Of a DNA stretch of 32,000 bases, positions 4,809-25,689 are shown piece after piece. The stretch comes from Mycobacterium leprae TN (GTDB taxonomy: Bacteria > Actinomycetota > Actinomycetes > Mycobacteriales > Mycobacteriaceae). The position numbers were made by a program, and so were the translations under genes. The stretch spans positions 3,090,001 through 3,122,000 of the forward strand of contig NC_002677.1 in assembly GCF_000195855.1 (NCBI RefSeq), read 5' to 3'. Each line of letters starts with the position of its first letter. The stretch's first letter is position 1. Below the pieces are notes generated by a model. It ran no database searches and was not told the DNA's origin. It saw nothing but the letters and a program-made list of their open reading frames with translations.

Positions 4809-6364
4809 GAACGCTGGAACTCCCCAATCGACTTCGCAGTGGGCTCATCGGAGTCCTGGTGGTCCTTCTCATCATCGGTGTGGGCCAAAGCTTCACCAGT
4901 GTCCCGATCTTGTTCGCCCGACCCAGCTACTACGGGCAGTTCACCGACACCGGTGGACTCAACAAGGGCGACAAGGTGCGCATTGCCGGCATGGATGTTG
5001 GCAAGGTGGAGGCGCTGAAGATCGACGGTGACCACGTCGTGATCAAGTTCTCCATCGGCACTAACCGCATCGGCACTGCGAGTCGGCTGGGGATCCGCAC
5101 CGACACCGTACTCGGCAAGAAGGTCCTCGAGGTCGAGACGCGCGGCACCCAGCTGTTACGGCCCGGGGACAGTTTGCCGTTGGGCCAAAGCACGACTCCC
5201 TACCAGAGCTATGATGCGTTCTTCGACGCCACCAAGGTCGCTTCGGGCTGGAACATTGACACCATCAAGCAGTCGCTGAAGGTGGTGTCGGAAACCATTG
5301 ATCAAACATACCCGCATCTAAGCGCTGCACTCGATGGTGTGGCCAAGTTCTCCGACACCATCGGCGCACGCGACAAGGAGATCAAACACCTGATTGCGCA
5401 GGCCAACCAAGTGGCTAGTGTCCTCGGTGACCGTGGCGCACAAGTGGACCGATTGTTGGTCAACACCAAGACTTTGATCGCGGCGTTCAACGAACGCGGA
5501 CGTGCCGTCGATGCATTGCTGGGTAACGTCGCTGCGTTTGCTGCCCAGGTGCAAAGATTGATCAACGACAACCCGAACCTCAATCACGTGCTGGAACAGT
5601 TGCACCAGCTGAGTGGCATCTTGGTTCAGCACAAAGACGACCTGGCTAATACTCTCATTCAGGTCGCCGCATTCTTACCATCGTTGAATGAGGCCATCGG
5701 GTCGGGACCCTTCTTCAAGGTGGTCTTGCACAACTTGGCGCCGTATCAGATTTTGCAGCCGTGGGTCGACGCCGCGTTTAAGAAGCGCGGTATCGACCCA
5801 GAGAACTTCTGGCGCAGCGCCGGGTTGCCGGAATTCCGGTTTCCCGACCCCAACGGCACCCGCTTCCCGAATGGCGCACCGCCGCCTGCGCCACCGGTGC
5901 TAGAGGGCACCCCGGAAAATCCGGGACCGGCTGTTCCACCGGGATCGCCATGCTCCTACACTCCGGCGCATCCGGGCGGCAATAACACCATCGGGGATGA
6001 AATGGGTCTGCCCCGGCCGTGGAATCCGCTCCCATGCGCTGGTGCGACAGCAGGACCGTACGGTGGACCCGCCTTCCCGGCGCCGATAGACGTCCAAACG
6101 TCGCCACCGAACCCCGATGGGCTGCCACTGCTGCCAGGCATCGCGATTGCTGGGCGGCCGGGTGATCCAGCTCCGAACGTCCCAGGTACTCCGGTGCCCC
6201 TACCGCCGAACGCGCCGCCAGGTGCGCGCACCGAGCAGCTGGCACCTGCCGCCCCGGCGCAGGATTCATCGGCACCGCATGAGCCCAGGGAACAGCTGTC
6301 AGCACCGTTGATTAACCCGGGAGGCACAGGAGGTAGCGGCGGCGCAGGAGGTAGTCGGAATTGA
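4805..6364 (+). CDS. mce1C: Mce1C MCE-domain protein with Pro-rich C-terminus
   Basis: The ORF is open from 4793. ATG 4805 forms an ATGA overlap with the mce1B stop (4806-4808) and gives an MRTLELPNR.. N-terminus like Mce1C. TM helix plus MCE domain (..VRIAGMDVGKV..). The C-terminal third is Pro-rich and ends in GGTGGSGGAGGS. Confidence 0.93.
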   Translation: MRTLELPNRLRSGLIGVLVVLLIIGVGQSFTSVPILFARPSYYGQFTDTGGLNKGDKVRIAGMDVGKVEALKIDGDHVVIKFSIGTNRIGTASRLGIRTDTVLGKKVLEVETRGTQLLRPGDSLPLGQSTTPYQSYDAFFDATKVASGWNIDTIKQSLKVVSETIDQTYPHLSAALDGVAKFSDTIGARDKEIKHLIAQANQVASVLGDRGAQVDRLLVNTKTLIAAFNERGRAVDALLGNVAAFAAQVQRLINDNPNLNHVLEQLHQLSGILVQHKDDLANTLIQVAAFLPSLNEAIGSGPFFKVVLHNLAPYQILQPWVDAAFKKRGIDPENFWRSAGLPEFRFPDPNGTRFPNGAPPPAPPVLEGTPENPGPAVPPGSPCSYTPAHPGGNNTIGDEMGLPRPWNPLPCAGATAGPYGGPAFPAPIDVQTSPPNPDGLPLLPGIAIAGRPGDPAPNVPGTPVPLPPNAPPGARTEQLAPAAPAQDSSAPHEPREQLSAPLINPGGTGGSGGAGGSRN

Positions 6365-16172: not shown

Positions 16173-17300
16173 TCACGACGCGTTACCCGTCGCTCGTCGG
16201 CGCCGGTAAACCGGTCTGCGTCGCCCTTCTCTAGGTCGCCAAAACCTTCCGGGGTGATTCGGCCGTGCTGGAGGTATTTGAGCTGCGGGTAGGGGCCTCC
16301 GACCGGCGCACCGCGTCGCCAGGCAATAGTTGACCGCTGTGCAGCGCCGCGTTGCGACTGTTCGGGGAAATGGCGGCATCAAGCCCGGGTATACCCCGAA
16401 GCATGCGCTCTTCAGGTTGCAGCTCAACAATTCCTCGTCAATTTCGTGCTGCTGGTAGTTGGGTGAGTGGACGGTCTCATCGAGGGTGACTTATATCTGC
16501 GCAAAAAAACTGACTTCGTTGCAGAATCGTTCTTCTTCGAATACAGAAGTCCAAGGGTCGCCTGCCTTACCGGTGGAATCCTAGTTGCGTTAATTCACCT
16601 TGCAATACTCAGATGGTGATCTCCATGCTGCGGTGTGAGTGCGTATTCAGACCAGTACCCTATACCACTAGGCCGTCGTTGTTCACCAACAAGAGCCCAT
16701 GGTGGGTATTGTCCGGATTGTAGTGGCGGCCAAACGAGGACGAACTCCCGGAATTGAATCAAGGTGTCGTGGTGACGGTGGATCGCGCCCAGCAGCAACC
16801 AGCAGTACATAAAATTTCATGTCGCAGAATCTGTTTAGAACCCATAGGTGACCGAATGCAATGCAACACACAGAGTTACCTGGAGCTGGCCAGCTCGAAT
16901 TTCACAAACAAGATGTCGTCAAGAAACGTCACTACATTACCGCCACCGTGTTTAGAGCACGTGCAAACTTTACGGGGTGGAGTACCTCACTTGCCCACAT
17001 ATACATTGCTGTGGCCGGCTGACTGTTAATGGACGACAGTAGCGGTCATATATCATCAGGGTATTCAGCGAGGCATTGCTGGTGAATCAATGCGCCGCTT
17101 CTTGTGACCCTTCATACCAACCGGCGGTCGACGGATACGGAAGCTACGGACGAGACGGTTACGGAGCACTGGGAAGCGTGGTCGCCATACATTTCGGCAA
17201 CGGCCGTTGCTGACGGCCTACCCGGGGAGCTCAGTCAGGTGTTGGTGGAGCTGCGATACAGCCAGGTAGGTATCGACGATTTGCCTTCGAAAGGGGCGTA
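16173..17300 (-). pseudogene. Decayed remnants in the position of Rv0181c (pirin-like) and sigG (Rv0182c)
   Basis: Only short broken ORFs are present. Minus-strand fragments include ..HSPNYQQHEIDE.. (pirin PRYQ-like) and a terminal ..PYPQLKYLQHGRITPEGFGDLEKGDADRF... A weak sigma region-4-like stretch lies near 16900. The assignments partly conflict and rest mainly on synteny. Confidence 0.3.
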
Positions 17301-17512
17301 GCCTTTCCAGGCCTGTGGAAATGTCTGCTGTACCAAGTTCTCTGTATCGTGCAAAGACCAGGGCGCCTGCCGACAGCTGCGTTTCAAGCAGTTGGCTTCG
17401 TTAGGGCTCCACTACGGGTGGCGAAATTTCTTTAGTTGACGGTTGGCGCGTTCGGCATCAGAATTATCGGCGAAAAAACTCACCAACCCGCAAATTTACG
17501 CATGCTGTCTGA

Positions 17513-19698: not shown

Positions 19699-19781
19699 GC
19701 GAATTCGATAGCGACCATGCGGTAGCGCGCGAGGTCGAAACCCAGCTGGCTGCCACACCGGGATTCTCACTGCTGATTAGG

Positions 19782-21000
19782 GTGGATGGGGGCCGGGGAA
19801 CCACGATCGCGACGATGTTGTTGATGACGAGCATTCTGCTGACCGCTGGCTACGTGACTGTGATCTCTAAACTCGGCGTTCCGACGTTGATGATGAATGA
19901 TACCGGGCTGGACGTTACCAATCCTGACTACTGCCGCGGTGAGATCGCTACCGCGCTAGCGGCCGGGCTGCCACTGTTTTGATCCTACCTTGGTCCGCGC
20001 CTCGGGTGACGTACGTGCTGGAAGGCATGCAGTCATAGGTTCAACGTACAACTCGCGGCCGTGATCAACATCGTGCGCGACCCGAGCAACCCTCCGAAAT
20101 TTCGAATACCTTTCCTAATAAAAGCTTTGAGTGCTGCCATTGCCGCGGAGTCGATCAACGGCATACAGCATCAGTGGGGCTATCTCGACTATCAACCACT
20201 ACTCGTTGAACTGCAACGAGACCAACCGACTTAGCTGTATGCGGTTATCGACACCGACGTTCACCGCGGATACGGTCTGGCGAGTCCTTAAATTAGAGAT
20301 TGCCGTTGAGCGATAACAAGTAGTAGAGTGCCGACGGCGTACAACAAGGTCAACGGCGACTACGCTTCCAGCAACCTGATTTTACTCAATGACGTGTTGA
20401 AAAGCGGCAGGGTATATCGCAGTTGGGTTATCTCCGATTGGGGAGCAATACCGAACTGGGAGTCCGCACTTAATGGGTTCGACCAAGAATGCGCTGCCCA
20501 GCTCGACGCCGTGTTTTAGCACTCGGGCATTCACTCACCAGGTGCGAAACGCCTATGCCGACGGCAGGCTGTCCAAAAAACGGGTTGTCGGACATGGCAC
20601 GATAGATTCGTGGTCGATGTTCGCTGTTGGGATATTGAATGCCACAGCTATGCTAATATAGCGAATCTGGTAGCGCATCACAAGATTGCCTTGTAGATCG
20701 CATGCCAGGGATTATTGTGCTGCTGAAGAACGACGGGGGCGCTGGCCGTTGAGTCTCTCGTGTCGTCGCGATCATAAGCCGGCTTTACACAGTTCAGTAT
20801 GGTCCGCTGGCTGCAGTTCCGTGCCGTTGTCCCCCGCCGGGGGACAACGGCACGGAATTCCGATCGGTGGGCGAGGGCTGACGGTCTTCCTACGCAATCT
20901 CTAACTCCTGGCATCGAGTCCGTTCACTCGATAACAAAGCAATTCCCCCTACGGGCAAACACATCTCTAGATTGGCGAAACCCGGCATGTAACCATCAAG
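19782..21000 (+). pseudogene. bglS: bglS (GH3 beta-glucosidase) pseudogene with frameshifts, stops and an internal deletion
   Basis: GH3 blocks are scattered over several frames. They include KLGVPTLMMNDTGLDV and NVQLAAVINIVRDPS (about 19840-20090), AYNKVNGDYASSN..LLNDVLK..VISDWGA (20328-20450), IIVLLKNDGG (20711-20740) and a C-terminal-like ..LTPGIESVHSI.. (about 20890-21000). About 1.2 kb remains of a gene that I recall as about 2.1 kb in M. tuberculosis. Confidence 0.8.
20817..20857. repeat. 41-bp perfect palindrome (20-bp arms around one central base)
   Basis: TTCCGTGCCGTTGTCCCCCG C CGGGGGACAACGGCACGGAA, verified base by base with symmetry centre at 20837. Both strands therefore translate to the same AVVPRRGTTARN peptide in the ORF track. 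Confidence 0.95.
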
Positions 21001-21023
21001 GCGGATCCGCACCTAGTGTCCCG

Positions 21024-21170
21024 CTACTTTACAGGCATCATTGCGACACCGCACGTGCAACGGTAGGGGGCACCCGACTTGGAGCAGTTACACTCAACCT
21101 CGATACGAACTCGACAGCCACAACCTTCGTGGCCACAGGTCAGCCAGGTCCCTGTCTCATAGCTTGTCAT
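21024..21170 (-). CDS. mymT: MymT-like copper metallothionein (48 aa)
   Basis: ATG 21170 to TAG 21024 encodes [48 protein letters not shown] (7 Cys). It matches the core of M. tuberculosis MymT as recalled, with all Cys conserved. AGGA lies 4-5 nt upstream. The slot between bglS and the Rv0187-like gene is syntenic. The 80-aa ORF in the track (to 21266) is probably an artefact because its ATG lies inside the -10 hexamer. Confidence 0.8.
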
Positions 21171-21264
21171 TTGTCCTGGCCTTAATCTGTGTTGGAGGGC
21201 TCGGTGAAGTCCCAAGTGATTGACCCCATTTGGGTTGTTCGGCAGGGCTATTACCCTTATTACC

Positions 21265-21285
21265 ATTATATACCCTCAATGGGTA
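21265..21285 (-). promoter_or_regulatory. CsoR/RicR-type operator TACCC-N5-GGGTA fused to a TATAAT -10 element (mymT promoter)
   Basis: The minus strand reads TACCCATTGAGGGTA (21285-21271) immediately followed by TATAAT (21270-21265). TTTACC sits 18 nt upstream as a weak -35. An additional GGGTA half-site on the minus strand (21256-21252) lies just downstream of the -10. Confidence 0.65.
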
Positions 21286-21399
21286 GCCGGTAAACAACAA
21301 ATCTAAGGATAGATGTAACAGCGCAGACTGGCCGGGCGACCAGTTTATTTTCCAAGAAGTCCCTGCTCGGTTAGCGTGTTCAATGGGAGGCTAGCGGTT

Positions 21400-21940
21400 C
21401 GACCTCCCAGGACGTCGACAGGACTCAATGGCATCAGTGTGGTTGGTCACGATATCCGGTGATGTTGGTGACGTTACAAGCCACCATCGCGGTCAGGCTG
21501 CTCCCCTATGGTCATCTCCATCGCGTCAAGGCACGTTTTCGTAATTGCTGTTCGCTATCATGGGCGATGTCGCATTCTCAATATCGGTAACATCGGGTAG
21601 AGTCAGCAACATTTATCTGGCGCGTGGCTAAGGCCCGAATTACGGGTAGTGCCGCTGGCATACAAGCCAAAGAACGCTTAGGTCGCACAGGTTCAACCTG
21701 CGTCCGGCGGTGCTGACCAGGTGAAGGTAGCGCTTGGCGCGTTACCGATAAGCTAGTAGCGTCGTTCGCGCAGCATTTCGGCTTTCCGAAAACCGTGAGA
21801 TCCAATTGCGGGGGGCTTCGTGAAGCCTTCGCCACCGGCGAGCACAACATCGCCTCGACCTAACGGTCAATAAGTAATTATACGGTCACAGGCAGGTTGA
21901 TAATCACGCGGATGGTGAGAACGCTAGATCTGGAGTAGAT
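21400..21940 (+). pseudogene. Class I SAM-dependent O-methyltransferase pseudogene (Rv0187-like)
   Basis: The + strand reads ..ILNIGNIG*SQQHLSGAWLRPELRVVPLAYKPKNA*VAQVQPASGGADQVKVALG... This parallels the OMT block VLEIGT.gGYS..WLA..L...G.v.tlE.....a.vA..n...aG.ad.v.v..G and carries stops. Later fragments are ..KPSPP.. and ..GRLIITRMVR.. (compare ADKP.., GG.I..DNV). Confidence 0.5.
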
Positions 21941-22045: not shown

Positions 22046-22960
22046 CTACGACGAGACCGGCCAGTCTATCGCAAGCTCACCTCCGGTTCCCATATGCCGT
22101 TCTATCGCGCCACCTTCGATAGCCTCGTCATGGTAATGGGCCAGCACTACTGCACGGGAGCGACCGTGGTTACGCCGTGACAGCGATCGACCAATCGACT
22201 CCAGCGACGACGCACGGCCTTGCGGGCTGTCCATCCAATCCGCCAGCTCAGCAGCGGCGGCTTTCTTGCGTGAGGTTAAAAATGATGACACTACCAACGG
22301 AATCAAGGGGGCCGTAACTTGTTTTACTGCAAGCGCTTCCAGTGCAGCTTGCTTGAGCTGCAACGCCTCGTCGGTCATACCCGGCAGCTCGGGCTCAGAC
22401 TCTCCAAAGTCGGCGACGTCGGTAATGATCTCGCCGCATTCGTCAAACCGCAGTACACGGCCTTCCAGCATGGCTGTCTCGGTTGTGGCCGCCGCTGGCA
22501 CAGGAGACTCTGGTTGCCGCTCAGGTTCGATGACATCCCTCGGCAACACCTCACGCACCACCAGGTGCGCGTTGGCACCGCCAAAACCGAAGCTCGACAC
22601 CCCGGCGAGCGCGTAACCGCCGTAGCGCGGCCAGTCGGTCGCCGTGTCGATAACCTTCAGGCGCATCGCATCGAAGTCGCTTGTTGTGTAGCCGCTACCC
22701 CTAACGACGCGAAACCCAGTTAGAGAACCTGATCAGAGCGTATGTGCTCTGGAATAAATGGATGGTAGCGGAAACGGCGACGTGGCCGCGAACCGCAAAG
22801 GGCATCTGCCGATGCTTAACAGAACGGGGTGCGCGCGAAAAGACCGGGAGCTCTGGGAAACCCGCCGGCTCTGGCGACTGGGGCACCAGCAATGCCATCG
22901 CGAGTACACCACCCGCCAGACCAGACCCCTCGATCTACTCGGGTAGTCGGACGTTCGTCC
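22046..22960 (-). pseudogene. Type I polyketide synthase fragment (C-terminal part of a KS domain plus KS-AT linker), truncated at both ends
   Basis: The minus-strand ORF 22046-22666 contains ..DWPRYGGYALAGVSSFGFGGANAHLVVREVLP.. (KS C-terminal signature). It is followed by linker sequence ..APLIPLVVSSFLTSRKKAAAAELADWM..SLESIGRSLSRRNHGRSRAVVLAHYHDEAIEG... Upstream (22700-22950) KS-like ..GSGLAGGVLAMALLV.. lies in another frame. No KS active-site region, AT, ACP or start is present. Confidence 0.65.
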
Positions 22961-24718: not shown

Positions 24719-24760
24719 CTAAGTATGCGCGGCGTAAGTGTGCCCAAAATCGGCGGGTAA

Positions 24761-24775
24761 TACCCAGTTGGGGTA
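24761..24775. promoter_or_regulatory. CsoR/RicR-type operator TACCC-N5-GGGTA in the ilvD/ricR divergent intergenic region
   Basis: TACCCAGTTGGGGTA at 24761-24775, preceded by another GGGTA (24755-24759). It is followed 5 nt later by TATGCT (24781-24786), a TAnnnT -10 candidate. Confidence 0.6.
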
Positions 24776-24889
24776 TGAGGTATGCTAGATCATCGGCGAT
24801 CGCGCCGAAGTTGGCAACCAAGGTCGATCGTAAGCCAGATGTTGAGCGCGGTATTAGGTTGGCTTGGCGAGGGACTGAATGAGGATACG

Positions 24890-25189
24890 GTGCGGGAAGA
24901 TGACAATCGCTACGGATATTCGCAGCAGAAGGGCAACTACGCTAAAAGACTGCGACGTATCGAGGGACAAGTGCGGGGCATCGCGCGTATGATTGATGAG
25001 GACAAGTATTGTATCGATATCCTCACCCAGATCAGCGCTGTCAGTAATGCATTGCGGTCGGTGGCGCTTAATCTACTCGACGAACACCTGGAATACTGCG
25101 TCAGCCGTGCCGTCGCCGAGGGAGGCAGTGAGGCCGAGGACAAATTTGCCGAAGCCTCGGCCGCTATCGCACGCCTTGTTCGTTCCTGA
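24890..25189 (+). CDS. ricR: CsoR-family copper-responsive repressor (RicR/Rv0190-like)
   Basis: CsoR fold signature ..YAKRLRRIEGQVRGIARMIDEDKYCIDILTQISAV..LLDEHLEYCV.. with the C-H-C ligand set. The preferred start is GTG 24890 (GAGGA 4 nt upstream, 99 aa, a length like Rv0190). Alternatives are ATG 24839 and the track's ATG 24782, which overlaps the putative -10. Confidence 0.85.
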   Translation: MREDDNRYGYSQQKGNYAKRLRRIEGQVRGIARMIDEDKYCIDILTQISAVSNALRSVALNLLDEHLEYCVSRAVAEGGSEAEDKFAEASAAIARLVRS

Positions 25190-25689
25190 TCTGTGCTTAC
25201 AGTGGGGGACGGCGTGACCCTGCGCGGCACTAGTTACCCACAAAATCGACAAACCTAGCTGAAACTACAGCCCACCTGGATGGCTACCGCTACCACCGTC
25301 GGCGTACGACCTTGGAAGCCCCGGATTGCTACGCAATTTGCATTACTGTCCGCAGCGGCTTTTCCTTATATATCACCGCAGAACTTTTGCCTGTAGAGAC
25401 GATATCGATGGTCGCATGGAATCTCAGCTTAAGCTTGTTACTAGTTGCCCCAGTATCCTGGTATGCGCTGTTAGCGGCTCTGACGACCATTCCCGTTAGT
25501 GCGTCGGCCCATCGAGGCATTATCTACCGCAAGCGCCGGTTGATAACGGTGATCATGCTCACGCCGGTAGGCGTCACCGGCCATCGCTCCGCGGGGACAC
25601 TCACCGGCGCAGACGACCCCGACGGTGCGTCAGGGCTGTAGGTGACGGCGGATCGAGTGGGGCTCATGGCAGGTAGATTATTATATTAG

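Follow-up and report, generated by a model that had tools for sequence, protein, structure and literature searches.

A 48-codon gene lying between two pseudogenes of Mycobacterium leprae TN is very probably the orthologue of mymT (M. tuberculosis Rv0186A), and we place the same high confidence in its explanation as a copper buffer that would be governed by the repressor RicR. MymT is a 48-residue cytoplasmic metallothionein, whose seven cysteines serve to buffer excess Cu(I). The stretch of DNA analysed (hereafter the window; 32,000 nucleotides of contig NC_002677.1, positions 3,090,001 to 3,122,000 of the forward strand) also carries an open ricR frame 3.6 kb from mymT, and a RicR-type operator 5′ of each of these genes; as far as can be read from the sequence, M. 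leprae carries both halves of the RicR-MymT circuit.

The mymT gene and its decayed neighbourhood

The gene and its immediate surroundings comprise the following elements:

19764..21023, plus strand: remnant of the bglS (Rv0186) pseudogene, convergent with mymT (tblastn)
21024..21170, minus strand: mymT coding sequence, 48 codons and TAG, with 7 Cys and His14 (translation, NCBIfam match, exact database match)
21174..21177, minus strand: Shine-Dalgarno-like AGGA, 3 nt 5′ of the mymT ATG (direct reading)
21436..21741, plus strand: remnant of an Rv0187-type O-methyltransferase pseudogene, divergent from mymT (tblastn)

An earlier note on this DNA, made from the letters alone, had described an intact minus-strand ORF of 48 codons, preceded by AGGA and encoding a MymT-type metallothionein in the slot between bglS and an Rv0187-like gene, stranded between these pseudogenes. 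Each of these statements held. The translation from ATG 21170 to TAG 21024 agrees with the peptide given there over all 48 residues, as does the spacing of its cysteines (C12-x4-C17-x-C19-x7-C27-x-C29-x8-C38-x-C40). The peptide matches NF052418, the curated NCBIfam equivalog model for the copper-binding metallothionein MymT, with 88.9 bits (cut-off, 80 bits), its residues 1-47 covering positions 1-47 of the 47 in the profile. Neither a Pfam family for the 48-aa peptide nor a relative of it in the PDB was found. BLASTP against M. tuberculosis MymT (MYMT_MYCTU, whose sequence the earlier note had given exactly) gave a gapless alignment with 33/48 identical residues (69%, E = 1e-24), in which all seven cysteines and His14 are aligned. 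The length is that of the family (about 48-53 aa), the seven conserved cysteines are in place and the C-G-H histidine is present. The closest relatives are those of M. haemophilum and M. lepromatosis, with 85% and 81% protein identity, respectively.

Across 79 homologues of 48 residues, drawn from GTDB species representatives, the seven cysteines, His14 and a 15-residue core are invariant or nearly so. M. leprae MymT differs from the M. tuberculosis protein in carrying Asn instead of the CHC histidine at position 28 (His in 76/79 homologues), Val instead of Asp at the near-invariant position 42, and a Trp at position 9 that is unique among the 79; moreover, M. tuberculosis MymT is annotated as a 53-aa form starting at an upstream ATG that M. 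leprae does not have. H28N is common to M. leprae and M. lepromatosis, whose loci also share G31K and the insertion of a pks13 fragment. Codon 28 (21087-21089) represents a lineage-specific loss of a potential metal ligand in both leprosy bacilli. Relatives of MymT are encoded on 248 genome stretches, among them those of many environmental Mycobacterium MAGs and of species without a known pathogenic role, a broader distribution than the “only in pathogenic mycobacteria” of the literature (PMC3944814).

The gene is a known, previously annotated one. Exact twins of the 48-aa protein are deposited as AWV48818.1 (GenBank), WP_081439386.1 (RefSeq) and UniRef100_A0AAD0P9R4, under the public name “metallothionein [Mycobacterium leprae]”, and at least 75 contigs carry it as a 48-aa or 80-aa ORF call. 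Since that exact protein already bears the name metallothionein in GenBank and RefSeq, mymT was not overlooked, and the question left in the earlier note, whether the annotation includes it, is answered for the current M. leprae records. M. leprae MymT stands alone in its 90%-identity cluster, so that no amino-acid variants of it are on record.

Gene order in the M. tuberculosis complex is Rv0191, ricR, ilvD, Rv0188, Rv0187, mymT, bglS, Rv0185, Rv0184, Rv0183, sigG, and that of the window is the same (Rv0183-Rv0184-Rv0185-bglS-mymT-Rv0187...ilvD-ricR). Rv0183, Rv0184, Rv0185, ilvD and ricR are intact in the window, with 75-90% protein identity to their M. tuberculosis-complex counterparts. M. 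tuberculosis mymT occupies the same slot; in M. leprae both neighbours are pseudogenes. By tblastn, the bglS remnant shows about 40% identity, 7-11 in-frame stops and changes of frame, its C-terminal third being mostly lost, and the O-methyltransferase remnant 31-45% identity and 2-4 stops; the queries for the latter were PF01596 proteins from other mycobacteria together with Rv0187 of the M. tuberculosis complex, a family for which PF01596 was confirmed. The M. haemophilum locus follows the M. tuberculosis-complex order, without a called Rv0187, and its bglS and Rv0188 are intact, unlike those of M. leprae.

Rv0188 was not detected in the 32-kb window, where a marginal hit (E = 0.01) falls inside the Rv0184 gene; it appears to have been replaced by a fragment of pks13. 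In the place taken by Rv0188 in M. haemophilum and in the M. tuberculosis complex, a 206-aa ORF (22046-22666, minus strand) is a duplicated pks13 segment, residues 1-185 of which are 100% identical to residues 536-720 of the resident M. leprae Pks13 (ML0101-type, 1784 aa). M. lepromatosis has the fragment in the corresponding position (88.6% nucleotide identity, 2 gap columns). That the M. leprae segment is identical to the resident copy suggests gene conversion with pks13, which would also account for its gene-like dN/dS of 0.27. Remnants of an Rv0191-type MFS transporter (25307-25683) and of sigG (16965-17492) flank the block from Rv0183-Rv0185 to ilvD-ricR.

Promoter, RicR-type operators and the state of ricR

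The regulatory elements of mymT, and ricR with its operator, are located as follows:

21171..21258, minus strand: presumed 5′ untranslated leader of about 88 nt (start site placed from the position of the -10)
21265..21270, minus strand: -10 hexamer TATAAT, directly adjoining the operator (promoter scan)
21271..21285, minus strand: RicR-type operator TACCCATTGAGGGTA (TACCC-ATTGA-GGGTA), within the promoter spacer (exact pattern match)
21289..21294, minus strand: -35-like hexamer TTTACC, with an 18-nt spacer to the -10 (promoter scan)
24761..24775, plus strand: second RicR-type operator TACCCAGTTGGGGTA, between ilvD and ricR, 5′ of ricR; putative autoregulation site
24890..25189, plus strand: ricR (ML2609), CsoR-family repressor; probable GTG start at 24890, frame open up to ATG 24782

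The mymT promoter has the layout TTTACC-N3-TACCCATTGAGGGTA-TATAAT, and 94 nt separate its -10 from the start codon. It scores 10/12 in the promoter scan and is the sole sigma-70-like hit in 1 kb, 0.5 being expected by chance. An operator placed within the spacer between -35 and -10 is the classic arrangement for repression by occlusion. Allowing at most one mismatch, TACCC-N5-GGGTA occurs twice in the window (0.61 sites expected), upstream of mymT and of ricR. The half-sites TACCC and GGGTA of the mymT box are those of the published RicR site, the source of the motif used here: RicR recognises a palindrome present in all promoters under its control, and binds less well when the GG of the GGGTA half-site upstream of ricR is replaced by TT (PMC3944814). 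The ricR box is printed in that paper one G short; in M. tuberculosis-complex DNA it reads TACCCCGCTGGGGTA, with an N5 spacer. An operator abutting TATAAT had been noticed before and left unnamed; its existence and position stand, and the mymT operator is identified here as a RicR box, that is, as a predicted site.

This architecture is a family trait. Among 82 distinct mycobacterial mymT upstream sequences (that of the window and those of 81 related loci; the M. haemophilum and M. tuberculosis loci, absent among the best 80 loci of the genome scan, were retrieved by exact-protein look-up), exactly one TACCC-N5-GGGTA box is present in 77. The box is directly followed by a TAnnnT hexamer, most commonly TATAGT, in 74 of these 77 sequences, and preceded at three bases by TTTACN in 54; a purine-rich, Shine-Dalgarno-like motif occupies positions -14..-4 in 75. 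The resulting consensus is ccnTTTaCcnnATACCCnTngGGGGTATAtAGTG. In the M. tuberculosis complex the layout is the same (TTTACC-aga-TACCCGTATAGGGTA-TATATT), although its -10 is TATATT and that of M. leprae is a perfect TATAAT. Box and -10 are identical at 20/21 positions between M. leprae and M. lepromatosis, without gaps. Pattern search, promoter scan and comparison with related loci agree with the earlier statement that operator, -10 and Shine-Dalgarno sequence are all intact.

The presumed leader is less conserved (75.6% identical to that of M. lepromatosis), and its folding is unremarkable (z = +1.17). RNAalifold returned no consensus structure for 81 distinct mymT leaders, because these differ in length and type, and no Rfam match was found in the whole 32-kb window. 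The distance from box to ATG is long (99-100 nt) in M. leprae, M. lepromatosis and M. haemophilum. As side observations, several species have a hairpin or palindrome 30-50 nt 5′ of the ATG, with apparently compensatory changes (at L085:4975-4995, in the leaders of the related loci L061, L070 and L054, and at about 21196-21214 of the window). Its arms are GGGATTCC-tcg-GGGATCCC in the M. tuberculosis complex, GGGACTTC-acg-GAAGTCCC in L061 and GGACTC/GAGTCC in L070; the counterparts in M. leprae and M. lepromatosis have decayed. Many short-leader species have instead a GC palindrome, GGTGCGGTCGACCCGCACC, right 3′ of the -10, and these structures could act on mymT as a second regulatory element. 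Directly 3′ of the M. leprae -10 (21243-21264, minus strand) lies the AT-rich near-tandem repeat GGTAATAAGGGTAATAG, within which the presumed transcription start falls; the same stretch is GC-rich and unrelated to this repeat in M. lepromatosis and M. haemophilum. At the other end of the gene, the window lacks the strong GC-rich hairpin by which mymT and bglS, convergent genes, are separated in other mycobacteria. A 10-nt palindrome is left there, GCGGATCCGC in M. leprae (about 20990-21010, minus strand) and GTGGATCCAC in M. lepromatosis (locus L004, about 6163-6175), and the two differences between them are complementary, so that the palindrome is kept.

The product of ricR covers the whole NCBIfam RicR model with 179.9 bits (cut-off, 175 bits), matches PF02583, keeps the Cys and His-x3-Cys copper ligands, and is 82.6% identical to RicR of the M. 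tuberculosis complex. A box is found at most 250 nt 5′ of ricR in 72 of the 74 loci with a RicR hit. In M. tuberculosis the RicR regulon comprises ricR, lpqS, mymT, socAB and Rv2963 (Festa et al., 2011; Shi et al., 2014, PMC3944814). The comparison covers the two members within the window, ricR and mymT: as in M. leprae, the autoregulatory ricR box and the mymT box have TACCC/GGGTA half-sites with a 5-nt spacer.

An alternative concerns regulation itself. Given that an M. leprae-specific 1-nt deletion has brought the ancestral ricR ATG (24900) out of frame, production of the repressor would rely on an alternative start codon, unlike in M. tuberculosis, and MymT might be made in M. leprae regardless of copper, RicR being absent, the operator a fossil and the TATAAT promoter constitutive. 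M. lepromatosis probably offers a precedent. Its ricR is a pseudogene with four lesions, which take the same form in both of the complete genomes compared (NZ_CP083405.1 and CP155806.1; alignments of L004:1889-2252 and L083:888-1251 with 24719-25200 of the window): a 1-nt deletion that leads to a frameshift and an early stop, a 9-nt duplication, the replacement of Cys by Arg at the copper ligand of H-x3-C, and another frameshift close to the 3′ end. Despite this, mymT and its RicR box are intact in M. lepromatosis, and conservation of the box alone is therefore no proof of an active repressor. We nevertheless regard the loss of regulation in M. leprae as improbable, given that its ricR frame is open through an in-frame GTG at 24890, 10 nt 5′ of the ancestral ATG and preceded by GAGGA, and that the core of the protein spans the full RicR model above cut-off. 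Database records place the start at three different codons further 5′ (giving 135 aa, ML2609, CAC32141.1; 116 aa, WP_172591936.1; and 104 aa), the 116-aa RefSeq form being recorded on 211 contigs. Furthermore, codon changes on the M. leprae ricR branch (outgroup, M. haemophilum) number 1 non-synonymous and 5 synonymous, against 8 and 5 in the M. lepromatosis lineage, which indicates that ricR is under constraint in M. leprae. The two leprosy bacilli would then probably differ in their copper regulation, repressible in M. leprae and constitutive in M. lepromatosis. No mention of the ricR loss in M. lepromatosis, or of this contrast, was found in the literature searched, though it may figure in supplements of genome comparisons; it is the sole element of the present analysis that might be new.

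Selection on mymT and extent of its product

The mymT coding sequences of M. leprae and M. lepromatosis share 87.1% nucleotide identity without gap columns, against 80.1% and 113 gap columns for the bglS remnant, 73.1% and 53 gap columns for the methyltransferase remnant, and 89-92.5% and 0-12 gap columns for intact neighbouring genes. The corresponding dN/dS is 0.22 (Nei-Gojobori), neighbouring intact genes ranging from 0.12 to 0.49; of the 19 differences, 10 are synonymous, against an expected share of 23% (P = 0.004). At the indel density of the pseudogenes on either side (48 frameshifting events over 2,606 nt), 2.7 frameshifting indels would be expected in 147 nt and none is seen (P of none = 0.07). 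When neutral substitution was simulated at the rates of the flanks, only 0.1-1.5% of runs left both ORFs open with all seven Cys and His14 in place. Taken jointly, dN/dS, absent indels and simulation make chance survival improbable, and neutral persistence of the ORF, all cysteines and His14 in both species is judged unlikely, of the order of a thousandth or less.

The picture is different for each branch. With M. haemophilum as outgroup, that of M. lepromatosis has about 5 non-synonymous and 9 synonymous changes, and that of M. leprae about 4 (D34A, D42V, V45M and probably A6T) and 1. This 4:1 ratio is the neutral expectation, and its difference from the 40:77 of the neighbouring genes is borderline (P = 0.056); the substitution rate along the M. 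leprae branch, 3.4% in mymT and 7.9% in the adjacent pseudogene, gives a marginal difference (P = 0.06). The purifying selection proposed in the earlier note, which had pointed to a comparison with M. lepromatosis as the way to examine it, is thus upheld for the species pair (dN/dS 0.22, no frameshifts or other indels), and argued for weakly in the M. leprae branch. Selection on the M. leprae/M. lepromatosis pair and on the metal-binding residues is well supported by these comparisons, constraint on the other residues in M. leprae itself being no more than possible with so few sites.

On the M. leprae branch, mymT could accordingly be read as a drifting relic, no longer useful and spared as a small mutational target of 147 nt. 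The unambiguous changes on that branch are all non-synonymous and fall at conserved positions, the branch rate departs from that of the flank with P = 0.06 only, and the literature searched yielded no M. leprae data on transcription, protein or copper binding. Against such a relic stand the pairwise dN/dS and its P value, the zero indels where 2.7 frameshifts were expected, and the seven cysteines and His14 kept in both species, rare in the simulations. The conserved box and -10 count against it as well, as does the constraint on the cognate repressor in M. leprae, which would be pointless without targets. We therefore consider drift even less probable than the loss of regulation discussed above, and M. 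leprae mymT is a real and probably functional gene.

The remaining alternative, that the true product is the 80-aa ORF which automatic gene callers start at ATG 21266, is very remote: the ORF exists (21266..21024) and is recorded on 75 contigs, but its ATG sits within the -10 hexamer (TATAATG), hence 5′ of the point where transcription is predicted to begin, all 79 homologues of 48 residues share Met1 of the 48-aa form, the region upstream of this Met is non-coding and variable in length (41-100 nt) in the homologues, the leader has indels relative to M. lepromatosis (4 gap columns), and the RefSeq record has chosen the 48-aa form. On these grounds the 80-aa product was rejected.

The proposed circuit and its meaning

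In the explanation that we favour, a sigma-A-type promoter (TTTACC-18 nt-TATAAT) would drive mymT. While copper is low, RicR, a repressor of the CsoR family supplied by a gene 3.6 kb away behind its own copy of the box, would sit on the spacer operator TACCC-N5-GGGTA and block RNA polymerase. Binding of Cu(I) to RicR would make the repressor leave the DNA, so that both ricR and mymT could be transcribed, and the resulting MymT would buffer the surplus Cu(I) via its seven cysteines. In M. tuberculosis, RicR occupies the box at low copper and is freed by Cu(I), and MymT sequesters Cu(I) and raises copper tolerance (PMC3944814, and papers cited there). For M. leprae, copper binding, RicR binding, copper induction and transcription are proposed by homology only.

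M. leprae mymT is an ordinary member of a known family within a known regulatory scheme, and that it has been kept in a decayed genome is mildly informative. The value of the present analysis lies in context, namely the comparative evidence on selection, the conserved layout of promoter and operator, and the loss of the repressor in M. lepromatosis. We give about even chances to the broader view in which M. leprae has kept a complete, selected RicR-MymT switch as a minimal pair amid pseudogenes, while M. lepromatosis would have lost the repressor, its MymT being constitutive and its operator orphaned. Should this be the case, copper intoxication would be a live selective pressure in the leprosy niche, and M. 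lepromatosis a natural ricR knock-out.

Roughly half of the genes of M. leprae have been lost, and those that are still intact therefore point to the pressures that continue to act on the bacillus in macrophages and Schwann cells. That mymT is intact between dead genes, and still has its RicR switch, argues that host copper is among these remaining pressures, in agreement with what is seen in M. tuberculosis.
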